NCBI GenBank assembly: GCA_964016885.1
Contig: OZ024746.1
Coordinates: 24,180,001 to 24,244,000, forward strand
Direction: 5' to 3'
DNA length: 64,000 nucleotides
From: Eledone cirrhosa
Lineage: Eukaryota
The position numbers and the translations under genes were made by a program. A model generated the notes under the pieces. That model saw only the letters and a list, made by a program, of their open reading frames with translations. It ran no database searches and was not told the DNA's origin. Position 1 is the stretch's first letter. Each line of letters starts with the position of its first letter. This document shows positions 5,195-51,886 of this stretch, one piece after another.

Positions 5195-5617
5195 GTAATC
5201 TGAGTTTTTCGAATATTAATAATAATATTCGATTTGTTTGCAATTATGCAAACAACCTCTTTAAAGCCATGTCAGTAGAATGAGCCCCTCATACTTGCTC
5301 TTGTGTTGGCATATAAACAGAATGGCAGACACTAATATTTCTGGGTGATTACCCTTCATCAGTGCCGTATACTGTTTACCTGCCAACTGTCAGAGCTAGT
5401 GAAAATATATATTTTCTAAAGTATACAGTGACTGATCAGCCTGATTTGCATATTAGCTGACTGGCTGATCAGTCAGATCTGCATATTAGCAGATAGACCA
5501 GTGAGTTTCATGTATACAAGCGATTAATGGCCGGCTTTGCCATATTCAAATCACTAACAAAAAACTCAGATTACATTTATTGTATTCAGCCATGTAGAGT
5601 GATAAAGCTATTTGTTA

Positions 5618-17504: not shown

Positions 17505-17940
17505 TGTGAAATGTAGGCCCATTCAAAGCTGGTTCTAGGCCCAGGCTACATGTGAAATGTAGGCCTATTCAAAGCTGGTTCTAGGCCCAGAGTACATGTG
17601 AAATGTAGGCCCATTCAAAGCTGGTTCTAGGCCCAGGCTACATTTGAAATGTAGGCCTATTCAAAGCTGGTTCTAGGCCCAGGCTACATGTGAAATATAG
17701 GCCTATTCAAAGTTGGTTCTAGGCCCAGGCTACATGTGAAATGTAGGCCTATTCAAAGTTGGTTCTAGGCCCAGGCTACATGTGAAATGTAGGCCTATTC
17801 AAAGTTGGTTCTAGGCCCAGGCTACATGTGAAATATAGGCCTATTCAAAGCTGGTTCTAGGCCCAGGCTACATTTGAAATGTAGGGCTATTCAAAGCTGG
17901 AACTAGGACCAGGCCCAGACCAGATGTGTAATATAGGCCC
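17505..17940. repeat. 46-bp minisatellite (about 9 copies)
   Basis: Unit TGTGAAATGTAGGCCTATTCAAAGCTGGTTCTAGGCCCAGGCTACA at 17505, 17551, 17597 and onward. Confidence 0.95.
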
Positions 17941-32204: not shown

Positions 32205-32340
32205 TGTTGATGTTAGAAATCACTAGAGTCCCAAACAAAATGGCTTGCTGTCTTTGTTCAAATACCGCTGAGGTCTACTTTGTCTTTTATCCTTCCGGGG
32301 TCAATAAAATAAATTAGCAGTGAAATAATCGATTAAACAA
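32205..32340 (+). mobile_element. 5' part of a Meta-like SINE interrupted by the retrozyme insertion
   Basis: GTTCAAATACC B box and TTTATCCTTCCGGGGTCAATAAAATAAA. The family's 3' part (TTCCCCAAAA..TTGGCCTTGTGCC..ATTATTATT) resumes at 36301. Confidence 0.8.
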
Positions 32341-32626
32341 ATAACGAAACGAAATTAAATTTTGTTTCGTTTGTAACTCACTTTTGTATGACTGACGCTT
32401 AAACAATTAAGTTAAAGATGTACATCCATATATGTATACTGAAATACTAGTATGTATATGGATACACACACGTATACATATGTAGATGTACCAAGTTTTT
32501 TCACTGGTCACTTTACTGTGAGTGGCCAGCTATTCTGTATGTAAACACACAGACAAACCGGTTTTTAGAGTCATACTGGTTTTTGAGGAAACACCTTTCC
32601 TCTATTCTCCAGAAAGCCAGACAAGG

Positions 32627-32671
32627 AATATTGAACTAGTTTCGTTGTTGTTACAACTCATCAGCAACATT
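32627..32671 (-). ncRNA. Type I hammerhead ribozyme, copy 1
   Basis: Minus strand AAUGUUG-CUGAUGA-GUUGU-aaca-ACAAC-GAAA-CUA-GUU^-CAAUAUU: 7-bp stem I, 5-bp stem II and a minimal palindromic stem III. Confidence 0.9.
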
Positions 32672-33093
32672 TACCTATCTTCCGGCCTCTCTAGAGAATC
32701 GTAAAAGCACATAGCGTTATATGCTTTTTCTATGAAAATTAGTAGTGGGCAGACTAATTTGCATAGAGTGTGAGTAAGTACCGGTTCAACGGAGACGATA
32801 AAAACAAATAACGAAACGAAATTAAATTTTGTTTCGTTTGTAACTCACTTTTGTATGACTGACGCTTAAACAATTAAGTTAAAGATGTACATCCATATAT
32901 GTATACTGAAATACTAGTATGTATATGGATACACACACGTATACATATGTAGATGTACCAAGTTTTTTCACTGGTCACTTTACTGTGAGTGGCCAGCTAT
33001 TCTGTATGTAAACACACAGACAAACCGGTTTTTAGAGTCATACTGGTTTTTGAGGAAACACCTTTCCTCTATTCTCCAGAAAGCCAGACAAGG

Positions 33094-33138
33094 AATATTG
33101 AACTAGTTTCGTTGTTGTTACAACTCATCAGCAACATT
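33094..33138 (-). ncRNA. Type I hammerhead ribozyme, copy 2
   Basis: Identical to copy 1, 467 bp further along. Confidence 0.9.
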
Positions 33139-33560
33139 TACCTATCTTCCGGCCTCTCTAGAGAATCGTAAAAGCACATAGCGTTATATGCTTTTTCTAT
33201 GAAAATTAGTAGTGGGCAGACTAATTTGCATAGAGTGTGAGTAAGTACCGGTTCAACGGAGACGATAAAAACAAATAACGAAACGAAATTAAATTTTGTT
33301 TCGTTTGTAACTCACTTTTGTATGACTGACGCTTAAACAATTAAGTTAAAGATGTACATCCATATATGTATACTGAAATACTAGTATGTATATGGATACA
33401 CACACGTATACATATGTAGATGTACCAAGTTTTTTCACTGGTCACTTTACTGTGAGTGGCCAGCTATTCTGTATGTAAACACACAGACAAACCGGTTTTT
33501 AGAGTCATACTGGTTTTTGAGGAAACACCTTTCCTCTATTCTCCAGAAAGCCAGACAAGG

Positions 33561-33605
33561 AATATTGAACTAGTTTCGTTGTTGTTACAACTCATCAGCA
33601 ACATT
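33561..33605 (-). ncRNA. Type I hammerhead ribozyme, copy 3
   Basis: Identical to copy 1. Confidence 0.9.
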
Positions 33606-34027
33606 TACCTATCTTCCGGCCTCTCTAGAGAATCGTAAAAGCACATAGCGTTATATGCTTTTTCTATGAAAATTAGTAGTGGGCAGACTAATTTGCATAG
33701 AGTGTGAGTAAGTACCGGTTCAACGGAGACGATAAAAACAAATAACGAAACGAAATTAAATTTTGTTTCGTTTGTAACTCACTTTTGTATGACTGACGCT
33801 TAAACAATTAAGTTAAAGATGTACATCCATATATGTATACTGAAATACTAGTATGTATATGGATACACACACGTATACATATGTAGATGTACCAAGTTTT
33901 TTCACTGGTCACTTTACTGTGAGTGGCCAGCTATTCTGTATGTAAACACACAGACAAACCGGTTTTTAGAGTCATACTGGTTTTTGAGGAAACACCTTTC
34001 CTCTATTCTCCAGAAAGCCAGACAAGG

Positions 34028-34072
34028 AATATTGAACTAGTTTCGTTGTTGTTACAACTCATCAGCAACATT
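34028..34072 (-). ncRNA. Type I hammerhead ribozyme, copy 4
   Basis: Identical to copy 1. Confidence 0.9.
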
Positions 34073-34494
34073 TACCTATCTTCCGGCCTCTCTAGAGAAT
34101 CGTAAAAGCACATAGCGTTATATGCTTTTTCTATGAAAATTAGTAGTGGGCAGACTAATTTGCATAGAGTGTGAGTAAGTACCGGTTCAACGGAGACGAT
34201 AAAAACAAATAACGAAACGAAATTAAATTTTGTTTCGTTTGTAACTCACTTTTGTATGACTGACGCTTAAACAATTAAGTTAAAGATGTACATCCATATA
34301 TGTATACTGAAATACTAGTATGTATATGGATACACACACGTATACATATGTAGATGTACCAAGTTTTTTCACTGGTCACTTTACTGTGAGTGGCCAGCTA
34401 TTCTGTATGTAAACACACAGACAAACCGGTTTTTAGAGTCATACTGGTTTTTGAGGAAACACCTTTCCTCTATTCTCCAGAAAGCCAGACAAGG

Positions 34495-34539
34495 AATATT
34501 GAACTAGTTTCGTTGTTGTTACAACTCATCAGCAACATT
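34495..34539 (-). ncRNA. Type I hammerhead ribozyme, copy 5
   Basis: Identical to copy 1. Confidence 0.9.
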
Positions 34540-35081
34540 TACCTATCTTCCGGCCTCTCTAGAGAATCGTAAAAGCACATAGCGTTATATGCTTTTTCTA
34601 TGAAAATTAGTAGTGGGCAGACTAATTTGCATAGAGTGTGAGTAAGTACCGGTTCAACGGAGACGATAAAAACAAATAACGAAACGAAATTAAATTTTGT
34701 TTCGTTTGTAACTCACTTTTGTATGACTGACGCTTAAACAATTAAGTTAAAGATGTACATCCACTCACAGTAAAGTGACCAGTGAAAAAACTTGGTACAT
34801 CTACATATGTATACGTGTGTGTATCCATATACATACTAGTATTTCAGTATACATATATGGATGTACATCTTTAACTTAATTGTTTAAGCGTCAGTCATAC
34901 AAAAGTGAGTTACAAACGAAACAAAATTTAATTTCGTTTCGTTATTTGTTTTTATCGTCTCCGTTGAACCGGTACTTACTCACACTCTATGCAAATTAGT
35001 CTGCCCACTACTAATTTTCATAGAAAAAGCATATAACGCTATGTGCTTTTACGATTCTCTAGAGAGGCCGGAAGATAGGTA

Positions 35082-35126
35082 AATGTTGCTGATGAGTTGT
35101 AACAACAACGAAACTAGTTCAATATT
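35082..35126 (+). ncRNA. Type I hammerhead ribozyme, copy 6 (inverted arm)
   Basis: AATGTTG (35082-88), CTGATGA (35089-95), GTTGT-aaca-ACAAC, GAAA (35110-13), CTA-GTT (predicted cut after 35119), CAATATT. Stem I extends with bulges over about 35054-35149. Confidence 0.9.
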
Positions 35127-35548
35127 CCTTGTCTGGCTTTCTGGAGAATAGAGGAAAGGTGTTTCCTCAAAAACCAGTATGACTCTAAAAACCGGTTTGT
35201 CTGTGTGTTTACATACAGAATAGCTGGCCACTCACAGTAAAGTGACCAGTGAAAAAACTTGGTACATCTACATATGTATACGTGTGTGTATCCATATACA
35301 TACTAGTATTTCAGTATACATATATGGATGTACATCTTTAACTTAATTGTTTAAGCGTCAGTCATACAAAAGTGAGTTACAAACGAAACAAAATTTAATT
35401 TCGTTTCGTTATTTGTTTTTATCGTCTCCGTTGAACCGGTACTTACTCACACTCTATGCAAATTAGTCCGCCCACTACTAATTTTCATAGAAAAAGCATA
35501 TAACGCTATGTGCTTTTACGATTCTCTAGAGAGGCCGGAAGATAGGTA

Positions 35549-35593
35549 AATGTTGCTGATGAGTTGTAACAACAACGAAACTAGTTCAATATT
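35549..35593 (+). ncRNA. Type I hammerhead ribozyme, copy 7
   Basis: Identical to copy 6, +467 bp. Confidence 0.9.
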
Positions 35594-36015
35594 CCTTGTC
35601 TGGCTTTCTGGAGAATAGAGGAAAGGTGTTTCCTCAAAAACCAGTATGACTCTAAAAACCGGTTTGTCTGTGTGTTTACATACAGAATAGCTGGCCACTC
35701 ACAGTAAAGTGACCAGTGAAAAAACTTGGTACATCTACATATGTATACGTGTGTGTATCCATATACATACTAGTATTTCAGTATACATATATGGATGTAC
35801 ATCTTTAACTTAATTGTTTAAGCGTCAGTCATACAAAAGTGAGTTACAAACGAAACAAAATTTAATTTCGTTTCGTTATTTGTTTTTATCGTCTCCGTTG
35901 AACCGGTACTTACTCACACTCTATGCAAATTAGTCTGCCCACTACTAATTTTCATAGAAAAAGCATATAACGCTATGTGCTTTTACGATTCTCTAGAGAG
36001 GCCGGAAGATAGGTA

Positions 36016-36060
36016 AATGTTGCTGATGAGTTGTAACAACAACGAAACTAGTTCAATATT
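36016..36060 (+). ncRNA. Type I hammerhead ribozyme, copy 8
   Basis: Identical to copy 6, +934 bp. Confidence 0.9.
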
Positions 36061-36285
36061 CCTTGTCTGGCTTTCTGGAGAATAGAGGAAAGGTGTTTCC
36101 TCAAAAACCAGTATGACTCTAAAAACCGGTTTGTCTGTGTGTTTACATACAGAATAGCTGGCCACTCACAGTAAAGTGACCAGTGAAAAAACTTGGTACA
36201 TCTACATATGTATACGTGTGTGTATCCATATACATACTAGTATTTCAGTATACATATATGGATGTACATCTTTAACTTAATTGTT

Positions 36286-36356
36286 TAATCGATTAAACAA
36301 TTCCCCAAAAAGTTTTGGCCTTGTGCCTGTGTTAGACATTATTATTATTATCATTA
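36286..36356 (+). mobile_element. 3' part of the SINE split by the retrozyme insertion
   Basis: TAATCGATTAAACAATTCCCCAAAAAGTTTTGGCCTTGTGCC...ATTATTATT matches the family 3' end seen at 42030-42101 and 50520-50575. Confidence 0.8.
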
Positions 36357-43404: not shown

Positions 43405-44350
43405 TGTTACACTGGTATCACAACTGTAGGTTATTGACTAATGTTACATTGGTGTCACAACTGTAGGTTACTGACTAATGTTACATTGGTGTCACAACTG
43501 TAGGTTACTGACTAATGTTACATTGGTATCACAACTGTAGGTTATTGACTAATGTTACATTGGTGTCACAACTGTAGGTTACTGACTAATGTTACATTGG
43601 TGTCACAACTGTAGGTTACTGACTAATGTTACATTGGTGTCACAACTGTAGGTTACTGACTAATGTTACATTGGTGTCACAACTGTAGCTTATTGACTAA
43701 TGTTACATTGGTGTCACAACTGTAGGTTATTGACTAATGTTACATTGGTGTCACAACTGTAGGTTACTGACTAATGTTACATTGGTGTCACAACTGTAGC
43801 TTATTGACTAATGTTACATTGGTGTCACAACTGTAGGTTATTGACTAATGTTACATTGGTGTCACAACTGTAGGTTATTGACTAATGTTACATTGGTGTC
43901 ACAACTGTAGGTTACTGACTAATGTTACATTGGTGTCACAACTGTAGGTTACTGACTAATGTTACATTGGTGTCACAACTGTTTGTTACTGACTAATGTT
44001 ACATTGGTGTCACAACTGTAGGTTACTGACTAATGTTACATTGGTGTCACAACTGTAGGTTACTGACTAATGTTACATTGGTGTCACAACTGTTTGTTAT
44101 TGACTAATGTTACATTGGTGTCACAACTGTTGGTTACTGACTAATGTTACATTGGTGTCACAACTGTTTGTTACTGACTAATGTTACATTGGTGTCACAA
44201 CTGTTTGTTACTGACTAATGTTACATTGGTGTCACAACTGTTGGTTACTGACTAATGTTACATTGGTGTCACAACTGTAGGTTACTGACTAATGTTATGC
44301 TGGTGTCAATTGTAGGTTACTATGTTACACTGGTTTCACAACTATAGGTA
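43405..44350. repeat. 37-bp minisatellite (about 25 copies)
   Basis: Unit TGTTACATTGGTGTCACAACTGTAGGTTACTGACTAA at 43442, 43479 and onward. Confidence 0.97.
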
Positions 44351-45439
44351 CTGGCCATGCTGGAAAAGACCTATTTAACCTATGAAAGCAAGGGACGTAT
44401 GATGATGATACATCATTTGTTATAGAAAATGTTAGTGTTTCAACATTGGTTCCAAAGACTGTTTCATACACACACATACATCCATGCACACACATCCCTG
44501 TACATACACAGACAAATGAACACACCCACAAATTCACATAAGCACAAACAGGCACCCATACCCAAGCATACACCTACACAAACACACATATGCATAAACA
44601 CCCACACATGCAAACACACACAAGCACACACAAAGACACATACCCAAGCATACACCTCCACAAACACACATATGCATAAACACCCACACATGCAAACACA
44701 CACAAGCACACACAAAGACACACAAACAAATACCCACATGCACAAACACACATATACATACATATACACACACATACAAGCATACCCAAAGACACAAACA
44801 TGTACACATAGAAGCACACACAAAGACAAACACACACACACACACACACACATAGACATCATTTTATCTAGTTGACCATTTCAATTACAATATACTAGAA
44901 ATAAACTTTGTGAAATCTTGATAATATATTGATGATAAATAAGGTAAAATAAGGTAAAACTCGAACTAATGTTATAAAATTTATGGTTTTTTTCTCTTGT
45001 TCATGATAGATTTTGGAGATAATCAACTTCAAAGTAGCCATGGAACTTAGCCATTATCACGTTGTTTTGTAATAATACTTCCTAGAGAGTAGTGAGATAT
45101 AAAGAAGAATTGCAACAATAAAACCTGCTGTTATCTCTTTAAACTGCATTTGGTAAAAATATCCACCAGTTAGTAAAAAAAAAACTGAGTTGAAATTCTA
45201 GCACAGTTTGATCTTTGATATTTCCTATAACAACATACTGATCTAAATAGACTATTCTTAAAAACCTCTTCTTTACATCCGTTACCGGCGCCATGATGAA
45301 GTTCCTCATCTAGCTTACCCAGTCCAACAGCAGTAGCAGCAACAATAGTAACAGAAACAATGGCAACTGCATCACTAGCAACAACAACAGAAGCAACAGT
45401 AGCAACAGCAAAAACAACAACAGAAACACATCAACACTT

Positions 45440-47046: not shown

Positions 47047-47390
47047 TCATTCATTCATTCATTTCATTTTACGTCCACTTTTCCCTGCTTGCAAGGGTGG
47101 GACGGGAACTGATTCTGGCTTGATTTCTACAGCTGGATGCCCTTCCTAACACCAACCTCATTTATAGTGAGTGCTGGGTGCTTTTTTGCCGTGGCACCTC
47201 CACGACCACTTTGCAGTGGAATGATAGGGACCCCAGTCCCTATCATCTCATTTCTACAGCTGAGTAAACTGGAGCAATGTGAAATAAAGTGTCTTGCTCA
47301 AGGAAACAACACATCACCCAGTCTGAGAATTGAACTCACAACCTTTCGATTGCAAGGCCAATGCTCTAACCACTAAGCCATGTGCCTCCA
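47046..47390 (-). mobile_element. Young tRNA-derived SINE, copy 3 (full length)
   Basis: Reverse complement of 37679-38026 with few substitutions, (ATGA)n tail, adjacent to a long (TA)n tract. Confidence 0.9.
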
Positions 47391-48769: not shown

Positions 48770-49710
48770 ATATAGATACTCTGGGTGTTTTCCAACTACC
48801 ACATCTGTAGCCATAGTTTCAGAAATACTGAACGCTCCCTCATGTTTTCCACCTATCACATCTGCAGCTATAGTTTGTAGAAATACTGAACTCTCCCTTG
48901 TGATTTCTAACTAAGTTTCTGTAATACTGAACTCTCCTGTGTGTTTTCCAACAACCACATCTGTAACCAGTAATTCCAATAATACTGAACCTTCCCTTGT
49001 GTTTTCCAACTACCACATTTGTAGTCAGTTTCAGAAATACTGAACTCTCCCTCATATTTTCCAACTACAACATCTATAGCCATAGTTTTAGAAATACTGA
49101 ACTTTACCTTATGTTTTCCAACTGTCACATCTGCAGCCATAATTTTAGAAATACTGAACTCTCCCCCTTGTTTTCCAACTATCCCATCTGTAACCATAAT
49201 TTTAGAAATACTAAACCCTCCTTTATGTTTTCCAACTGTCACATCTGTAGCCATAATTTTAGAAATACTAAACTCTCCCTTGTGTTTTCCAACTGTCACA
49301 TCTGTAGCCATAATTTTAGAAATATTAAACTCTCGCTTGTGTTTTCCAACTGTCACATCTGTAGCCATAATTTTAGAAATACTAAACTCTCCCTTGTGTT
49401 TTCCAACTGTCACATCTGTAGCCATAATTTTAGAAATATTAAACTCTCGCTTGTGTTTTCCAACTGTCACATCTGTAGCCATAATTTTAGAAATACTAAA
49501 CTCTCCCTTGTGTTTTCCAACTGTCACATCTGTAGCCATAATTTTAGAAATACTAAACTCTCCCTTGTGTTTTCCAACTGTCACATCTGTAGCCATAATT
49601 TTAGAAATATTAAACTCTCGCTTGTGTTTTCCAACTGTCACATCTGTAGCCATAATTTTAGAAATACTAAACTCAATACTGTTTTTTTAAAACTAACACA
49701 TCTGTAGCAA
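48770..49710. repeat. 57-bp minisatellite (about 16 copies, homogeneous on the right, degenerate on the left)
   Basis: Unit TGTGTTTTCCAACTGTCACATCTGTAGCCATAATTTTAGAAATACTAAACTCTCCCT; 19-aa periodicity in the ORF track. Confidence 0.95.
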
Positions 49711-50657: not shown

Positions 50658-51325
50658 GTCTAACAGTCTATAGTAGCCTGTATCAGGAATATAACTGTCA
50701 GTGAAACTGTCAACACACATCTTAAAGATAGTATCTGGGTCTAACTGTCTATAGTAGCCTGTATCAGGAATATAACTGTCAGTGAAACTGTCAACACACA
50801 TCTTAAAGATAGTATCTGGGTCTGTCTATAGTAGCCTGTATCAGGAATATAACTGTCAGTGAAACTATCAACACACATCTTAAAGATAGTATCTGGGTCT
50901 GTCTATAGTAGCCTGTATCAGGAATATAACTGTCAGTGAAACTGTCAACACACATCTTAAAGATAGTATCTGGGTCTAACAGTCTATAGTAGCCTGTATC
51001 AGGAATATAACTGTCAGTGAAACTGTCAACACACATCTTAAAGATAGTATCTGGGTCTAACTGTCTATAGTAGCCTGTATCAGGAATATAACTGTCAACA
51101 CACATCTTAAAGATAGTATCTGGGTCTAACTGTCTATAGTAGCCTGTATCAGGAATATAACTGTCAATGAAACTGTCAACACACATCTTAAAGATAGTAT
51201 CTGGGTCTAACAGTCTATAGTAGCCTGTATCAGGAATATAACTGTCAGTGAAACTGTCAACACACATCTTAAAGATAGTATCTGGGTCTAACTGTCTATA
51301 GTAGCCTGTATCAGGAATATATACA
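50658..51325. repeat. ~81-bp minisatellite (about 8 copies, with shorter variants)
   Basis: TAAC(A/T)GTCTATAGTAGCCTGTATCAGGAATATAACTGTCAGTGAAACTGTCAACACACATCTTAAAGATAGTATCTGGGTC at 50661, 50742 and onward. Confidence 0.95.
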
Positions 51326-51520
51326 TGTATCTTCTAGGCAGTGTCTATCTGTCTAACTATCTGTCAAACTGCCTATAGTAGCTGTATCAGGAATATAACA
51401 TTTATCTTATAGATAGTGTCTTGAAATCTATTTGTCTGTCTATCTGCATCTGTTTGTTTGTCCATCCATGTGTCTGTATATCTGTCTGATTGTGTTTCTA
51501 TGTCTGTCAAACTGTCAACA

Positions 51521-51886
51521 TTTATCTTATAGACAGTGTCTATCTGCCTCTCTAACTATCTATAGTAGGTGTATCAGGAACATATAGATTTATCTTATAG
51601 ACAGTGTCTATCTGCCTCTCTAACTATCTATAGTAGGTGTATCAGGAACATATAGATTTATCTTATAGACAGTGTCTATCTGCCTCTCTAACTATCTATA
51701 GTAGGTGTATCAGGAACATATAGATTTATCTTATAGACAGTGTCTATCTGCCTCTCTAACTATCTATAGTAGGTGTATCAGGAACATATAGATTTATCTT
51801 ATAGACAGTGTCTATCTGCCTCTCTAACTATCTATAGTAGGTGTATCAGGAACATATAGATTTATCTTATAGACAGTGTCTATCTA
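51521..51886. repeat. 68-bp minisatellite (5+ copies)
   Basis: TTTATCTTATAGACAGTGTCTATCTGCCTCTCTAACTATCTATAGTAGGTGTATCAGGAACATATAGA at 51521, 51589 and onward. Confidence 0.95.

Follow-up and report, generated by a model that had tools for sequence, protein, structure and literature searches.

We analyzed a 64,000-nt stretch of the Eledone cirrhosa genome (assembly GCA_964016885.1, contig OZ024746.1, positions 24,180,001 to 24,244,000 of the forward strand; hereafter the window), which holds at 32326-36300 an element built of 467-bp units, each with a type I hammerhead ribozyme (HHR). The element is a real, young member of a family of retrozymes of the non-LTR type (LTR, long terminal repeat). 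The retrozyme class is already known, and the two-arm anatomy of the insertions is new relative to the literature searched. This anatomy very probably shows twin priming of the kind seen in Penelope-like elements (PLEs). On balance, we favor an overall reading in which the retrozyme is a non-autonomous retroelement mobilized by PLE twin priming, probably round a circular RNA.

The initial annotation had described the locus as a single tandem array. It is instead made of two divergent arms that are reverse complements of each other, with the minus strand carrying five of the eight HHR cores and the plus strand three, and it is flanked by a 15-bp target-site duplication (TSD). The 467-bp period and the eight cores were both recovered in tandem-repeat and core searches of the window, and the one substitution already noted, T>C at 35469, is the only one in otherwise identical units. 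The TSD sequence has two plus-strand copies in the window, one more match on the minus strand and none in the unit. When joined through one TSD copy, the flanks align across the site at 70% to an interspersed repeat (2 of 59 matches, at loci L038 and L094), and the element is therefore an insertion with a TSD. We take the target repeat to be SINE-like (SINE, short interspersed nuclear element). The features of the insertion are listed below, with unit positions numbered from the cleavage site (site A, 299-303; site B, 228-238).

32256-32340 (+): left half of the interspersed target repeat, which resumes at 36301-36356
32326-32340 (+): left TSD copy, 15 bp; the last 6 nt are also the 3' end of the element (microhomology)
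32335-34763 (-): minus arm of 5.2 units, with its RNA-sense 3' end at position 299 of the unit (the 'tail' end, site A) and its 5' end at 206
34761-34763: inversion junction, 3 nt common to both arms
34761-36288 (+): plus arm of 3.3 units, with its 5' end at position 109 of the unit and its 3' end at 235 (site B)
36286-36300 (+): right TSD copy, 15 bp; the first 3 nt match the element as well
35054-35149 (+): type I HHR whose stem I is extended; core at 35089-35119, predicted cleavage after 35119
35556 and 36023 (+), and 34532, 34065, 33598, 33131 and 32664 (-): other HHR cores
35120-35586 (+): one monomer, delimited by successive cleavage sites, the predicted circle; 467 nt, 35.8% GC, without an open reading frame (ORF)
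35354-35422 (+): 'tail' between the two fixed starts of reverse transcription (RT; unit positions 235-303), with a hairpin
35456-35463 (+): octamer ATGCAAAT, in a block kept in both retrozyme families (this one and its sister)
35469 (+): sole substitution, T>C, confined to a single unit

Insertions with this anatomy are found throughout the genome. Our sample comprised 30 stretches fetched around listed matches, representing 28 places chosen by score, and 20 further places from the start of a list of A-end junctions, mostly picked for having no partner in the B-end list. From these places, the window and a PLE locus we obtained 51 clusters. By BLAST, 39 of the 51 are two-armed and 38 of these are complete (L077 is cut by the locus edge), and once a spurious palindrome match in L037 is removed the order is always minus arm, then plus arm. 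The outer ends are one A and one B in 36 of the 38 complete insertions, with no case of two A or two B ends, and the one-of-each count is 23 of 24 among the insertions picked solely on BLAST score. The two exceptions are L031, which has an eroded end, and L089, a PLE-joined copy. Of the 12 clusters that seem one-armed, five have a second arm of 7-20 nt of the complementary type, three (L060, L085 and L090) abut (TA)n with an unclear or ambiguous second arm, L051 is ambiguous, and the other three are joined to other elements.

In 34 of 38 insertions, (TA)-rich sequence flanks the element on either side (22 of 24 in the unselected sample). The non-microsatellite targets are the window and L059, with TSDs of 15 and 13 bp. 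No poly(A) 3' tail was found at these insertions, which end at positions inside the unit, directly next to (TA)n or the TSD. The inner junctions are spread all round the unit (22 with overlap, 6 blunt and 11 with an insert; n = 39), and near-symmetric fold-back junctions account for 7 of the 39, with 2.1 expected (p 0.004). At the junction of L036 (6726-7277), a 4-nt deletion is confined to the innermost partial unit of both arms, which is consistent with fold-back copying of one end of the complementary DNA (cDNA). L073 (504-570) holds a mini-insertion in (TA)n, with about 42 nt at the A end and about 20 nt at the B end. It shows that the two starts fire even with early stops in both arms.

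The PLEs of the same genome were used as controls. The genome holds 10,596 GIY-YIG candidates, and ORFs for reverse transcriptase with GIY-YIG are present, one of them open for 938 codons. In an HHR-bearing PLE family with a 58-nt tail, all 8 two-armed copies (two of which may be one duplicated insertion) have a long end and a short end, and in a second family, with a tail of about 35 nt, so do 2 of 2. The sister retrozyme follows the same pattern at 9 of its 12 two-armed loci; at the remaining three, one end is irregular. The retrozyme unit fails as an autonomous PLE, having no ORF to encode reverse transcriptase and GIY-YIG; its longest ATG-initiated ORF is 30 aa and its longest stop-free frame 62 codons.

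Published work on PLEs (cited here, as are all papers below, for the portions of their text at hand) describes a similar footprint. In PMC8557442 this is an inverted, 5'-truncated copy with (TA)n targeting, and a 30-40-bp tail is often found at one end only. In PMC11167929, the Anolis PLE protein PAc cuts and extends both strands of AT-rich DNA in vitro; two internal RNA start sites bound the tail, and a dimer is predicted. The insertions described here share with such endonuclease-positive PLEs the inverted 5'-truncated copy, the one-end tail, (TA)n targets, two internal starts, extension of both strands and a type I HHR upstream of the RT starts. They differ in having no ORF, a longer tail and arms that are multimers of the 467-nt unit, and where PAc shows no strand difference in vitro, each insertion here has one start per strand. 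Chlamys PLEs such as MRC1 (PMC8557442) are likewise non-autonomous PLE passengers with multicopy head-to-tail insertions, but they resemble their autonomous partner at the 3' end, and the passage that describes them is without ribozyme or circle. The link to PLEs proposed in the initial annotation thus gains support from insertion anatomy, evidence beyond what that annotation had used.

Array homogeneity bears on the template, which we consider likely to have been, as a rule, a circular monomer. Each of 29 young arrays (1.9-19.5 units, 105.8 kb in all) has its own haplotype fixed in all units and both arms, and arm-specific fixed variants occur in none of the 29. Because the two arms carry the same haplotype, rolling-circle copying of one circular monomer is favored over unequal crossover; rolling-circle RT predicts just such a pattern, with a bottleneck of one unit and then amplification into both arms at once. 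There are 20 fixed haplotypes among the 29 arrays, partly nested and three of them resting on arrays of <2.5 units, and that of the window has a private change at unit position 173. Variant calls comprise 70 single-unit cases, some of which are end erosion or assembly error, and 7 multi-unit cases in four arrays. All 223 unit junctions are exact, and the sequence up to 6 nt from the cleavage site is unaltered in each. These variant analyses omit positions 133, 271, 272, 276 and 283 (homopolymer or palindrome) and the second L032 cluster. Folded as a circle, the hairpin-rich monomer reaches -145 kcal/mol, compared with -89.7 +/- 5.6 for 60 shuffles. One unit of L045 (4835-5300) has a tract of older-lineage variants (109, 179, 205 and 217), by gene conversion or an RT switch to another RNA. 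We also considered an ADAR-type excess of A>G among fixed variants, leaving out the eroded L031 piece, and rejected it (11 vs 6 T>C, p 0.16, not significant).

The HHR on which such a circle would depend has a complete core, and the core search agrees with the cleavage position following 35119. The long stem I reported over 35054-35149 is also borne out by folding (-35 kcal/mol, z -4.8, with 0 of 200 shuffles equally good). The description of the ribozyme as 'intact' holds for the core but less well elsewhere: stem III consists of a single A-U pair that closes a palindromic CUAG loop, GUU is the cleavage triplet, and the minimum-energy monomer fold mispairs the core, with CUG paired to the stem III loop. 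No stable stem III of the monomer-active form was found, and the design fits the dimer-active amphibian type. In PMC7229834, a one-pair stem III with a palindromic tetraloop is described, and such amphibian HHRs cleave well only as dimers. Given the one-pair stem III and the palindromic loop, predicted cleavage in this family probably acts via dimers. An Rfam search of the window returned no ribozyme at gathering score, and the best sub-threshold match was Hammerhead_HH9 (36.1 bits vs a cut-off of 52, E 1.9e-7; two lower-scoring hammerhead clan matches were left out of the listing). A metagenome scan for the HHR core gave 0 matches.

Stem covariation among homologues, named earlier as a test of the ribozyme, is present. 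We chose 24 distinct variants from 43 in the loci, drawn from this family, an older GUC subfamily and the sister family. The core is invariant among them, 6 of 14 pairs have changed on both sides, and 94% of stem cells are paired, vs 34-48% in slid controls. As judged from this invariant core and the two-sided pair changes, the HHR is under selection, and it is likely to be active in self-cleavage.

These elements can be assembled into a proposed mechanism. Arrays would be transcribed, the HHR would cut the transcripts to 467-nt monomers, probably as dimers, and a host ligase would close these to circles, as expected from the class. A PLE protein with a GIY-YIG endonuclease and reverse transcriptase would then make a staggered cut in AT-rich DNA, mostly (TA)n; at the window site the stagger is 15 nt, as shown by the TSD. 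Each free 3' end would prime RT on the RNA, at site A (299-303) and site B (229-235), and each RT would circle its template a variable number of times. Joining of the two cDNAs via short microhomology or fold-back would give the order TSD, inverted arm, forward arm, TSD, and some arrays may later alter in length by unequal exchange. That a single, probably dimeric PLE enzyme primes both cut strands at two fixed sites of the same circle, one for each strand, with rolling-circle RT, seems to us a matter of even balance.

Several observations weigh against this reading. The 467-nt RNA, its cleavage, the circle and the partner PLE are here inferred from DNA alone, and in a recent preprint on vertebrate retrozymes (bioRxiv 10.64898/2026.07.22.740005; Li, Clavereau, Pollet 2026) in vitro cleavage was obtained for 1 of 9 predicted retrozymes. 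The 24 covariation variants come from two related families, which overstates their independence. At 69-74 nt, the tail is longer than the published 30-40 nt and than the 35-58 nt measured in the PLEs of this genome, and BLAST of the unit against 26 fetched PLE loci (of the 10,596 GIY-YIG candidates) revealed no homology to a pseudo-LTR (pLTR). Genome totals of A and B ends are unequal (2,163 vs 707), so the 1:1 pairing rests on the sampled clusters, and the privacy of haplotypes was judged on 29 arrays out of thousands. L047, L048, L053 and the older long L077 have variants common to several units; in L048 and L053 these form period-3 blocks, and 97C>T is present on each arm of L048. Copying from multimers, or unequal exchange at a later time, thus does take place. 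For L048 and L053 we rejected a trimer circle, as the 3' units do not fit. Finally, 13 of 90 5' ends lie at the cleavage site (5.6 expected, p 0.004; 0.08 when corrected for scanning), an indication that some templates were linear; exact jumps of the enzyme along a linear monomer would leave the same picture.

Such observations lend some weight to an account in which PLE twin priming starts from an uncleaved linear multimer of the donor array and the arms grow later by unequal crossover, the local-amplification route considered in the preprint. The weak stem III and GUU triplet could leave multimers uncut, and both the multi-unit variants in L047, L048, L053 and L077, including the 97C>T in both arms of L048, and the surplus of 5' ends near the cleavage site would fit. 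We nevertheless find this account unlikely. A haplotype specific to each array and present in both arms would require a one-unit bottleneck followed by re-amplification, and stepwise duplication should leave arm-specific and multi-unit variants, where we count 0 and 7 vs 70 single-unit ones. Longer arrays are also more uniform (Spearman -0.47, p 0.01), though recent expansion would give the same. Repeated copying of a linear self-cleaved monomer, in which the enzyme would jump from the 5' end to the 3' end of the same molecule without any covalent circle, would yield the same homogeneous arrays and would account for the 5' ends near the cleavage site. RT template jumps often gain or lose bases, however, and all 223 unit junctions are exact; in addition, circles predominate in the retrozymes tested in PMC7229834, and we regard this route as improbable.

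A DNA-level satellite (extrachromosomal circular DNA and fold-back repair) or a mover other than a PLE, such as L1-type twin priming, could draw on the fold-back junctions (7 of 39) and the hairpin-rich unit. It is harder to reconcile with two fixed RNA-sense ends that are always outermost and present as one of each, with ends that lack poly(A), and with autonomous PLEs of the same genome that share the geometry, and we rate it slightly less probable still than jumping on a linear monomer. Inverted repeats are also a known artefact of long reads, here of the fold-back kind, but an assembly origin of the inversion is very hard to credit given the TSDs, the fixed complementary ends, the differing junction positions at 39 loci and the tiny second arms. 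Twin priming by a PLE, usually from a circular monomer, remains our preferred explanation.

No pLTR sequence ties the family to a particular PLE among the loci compared. A PLE family at L096, L097, L099, L100 and L106 has a pLTR HHR with the same one-pair, palindromic-loop stem III, but without sequence similarity to the unit. L089 (504-4245) consists of a retrozyme A arm, 40 nt of retrozyme, and a 5'-truncated PLE with reverse transcriptase and GIY-YIG that terminates at its short end, joined by short overlaps with (TA)n on both sides. It could be a template switch, in which case it would name the partner, or two insertions and a deletion (n = 1). From this one ambiguous joint, the L101/L105 PLE family is the first partner candidate. 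Three other candidate links were discarded: a 10-nt motif common to the unit and the tail end of one PLE is too short to count, L042 is not a co-insertion of the sister and this family, as duplicated neighbors hold an intact sister insertion, and L074 is not a retrozyme-PLE chimera, as it lies inside an old PLE fragment.

The octamer ATGCAAAT we take to be a possible promoter element of the small nuclear RNA (snRNA) type. An snRNA-type promoter is given for newt satellite 2, second-hand, in PMC2220036; by comparison, the octamer kept in both families here is a candidate promoter only. Newt satellite 2 and Schistosoma Sm-alpha are also alike in being tandem type I HHR repeats, a likeness by description only. 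The metazoan non-LTR retrozymes of PMC7229834 (coral, mussel and axolotl) have units of 170-400 nt and shown expression. They resemble the family described here in their low-GC, non-coding tandem units, type I HHR, TSDs of >4 bp and highly self-paired circle, and differ from it in unit length (467 nt here) and in that ours is seen at the DNA level. The preprint treats vertebrate retrozymes as non-autonomous PLE derivatives with units of 51-972 bp. Its retrozymes share the PLE partnership and the length range, but there the link is co-occurrence and pLTR homology, and here it is insertion anatomy, with no pLTR homology found. A length of 467 nt, placed at the long end of the class in the initial annotation, is thus above the range of PMC7229834 but inside that of the preprint.

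Rolling-circle RT on a circular monomer is put forward as a hypothesis in PMC7229834 and likewise in PMC7761336, where the repeats show no motif indicating a partner. The preprint discusses local amplification for arrays and leaves their mechanism unresolved. Tandem repeats are described in the main text of PMC7229834; no inverted arms were found at 12 of 14 keyword places, and the portions at hand name no fixed RT starts. A term search of the preprint text gave no tail, target site, inverted arms, octopus or mollusc, and the available text of the Octopus vulgaris repeat annotation (PMC13282606) no match for retrozyme or ribozyme. We found no description of two-armed retrozyme insertions in the literature searched, from which subscription papers mostly fell outside.

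Within the 3.0-Gb assembly, the unit search gave at least 268 matches, from 37 of 266 candidates scored. Exact-pattern counts, for which reversed controls gave 0, reached 2,163 (TA)-element junctions for A ends and 8,840 for one hairpin variant of the unit. The B-end pattern has 707 matches with multiple counting, and it misses the older subfamily and tiny arms. The unit is without LTRs, and dispersed copies number in the thousands. The call of a young non-LTR retrozyme is upheld, both in its age and in the 467-bp low-GC, non-coding tandem units, type I HHR and TSD of >4 bp, and other arrays are found genome-wide in thousands of copies.

The older subfamily (L080, L082, L084, L085 and L087) is 87-88% identical, with a 469-bp unit, a GUC triplet and a compensatory change in stem II, and its two-arm anatomy is alike. 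The sister retrozyme (L120:1220-2287, L042:3647-4391, L107-L136) has a 430-bp unit and a GUA triplet; it has the same palindromic stem III, its RT starts correspond by homology to sites A and B, and its tail is 56 nt. The sister motif has 17,580 genome matches, with 0 in reversed controls.

Unit words occur in 20 of 24 listed sequencing runs under 17 organism codes, with no RNA runs and no bearing on expression; those of other organisms may reflect relatives, horizontal transfer or trace DNA. A contig of run X1 reads from the flank to 22 nt past the TSD without mismatch, which we did not use as support (31-letter bridging rule, possibly the same sample). An empty allele, sought over 31700-32801 in contigs from four runs, was not seen. 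The unit-to-unit joint is present in contigs of all four runs, as tandem DNA would give likewise. Run X4 holds one 497-nt contig that is a whole unit closed on itself (GUC variant), on window 32335-32801, and a neighboring high-copy repeat is uncovered in that run.

Elsewhere in the window, a tRNA-like match of 29.9 bits at 47319-47382 (-) is likely to be the head of a SINE, and at 5362 (-) there is a short motif that resembles the HHR and is similar to one in L071. Minisatellites lie at 17505-17914 (46-bp unit), 43405-44353 (37), 48923-49674 (57), 50658-51321 (81) and 51520-51885 (68), and the HHR pattern, looked for in these five, was found in none.

Taken alone, the ribozyme repeat is an unremarkable member of a class already described. 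Both the mover of animal retrozymes and the choice between rolling-circle RT and unequal crossover as the origin of their arrays are stated as open, and this family, with thousands of young insertions, offers countable genomic evidence together with exact predictions: RT should start at two positions, one on each strand, and only circles should give multi-unit cDNA. If our reading is true, the insertions would be a genomic record of a eukaryotic retrotransposon reverse transcriptase rolling round a ribozyme-made circular RNA, and PLEs would be identified as the mobilizers of animal retrozymes. The one-of-each end rule also bears on the integration mode of PLEs, whose tail and inversion would be explained as obligate paired initiation, and a hidden two-arm anatomy would be expected in coral, mussel and amphibian retrozymes. 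A natural reverse transcriptase that inserts arrays of kilobase length at staggered cuts, using a 467-nt circle as its template, may also be of interest for RNA-templated genome writing.

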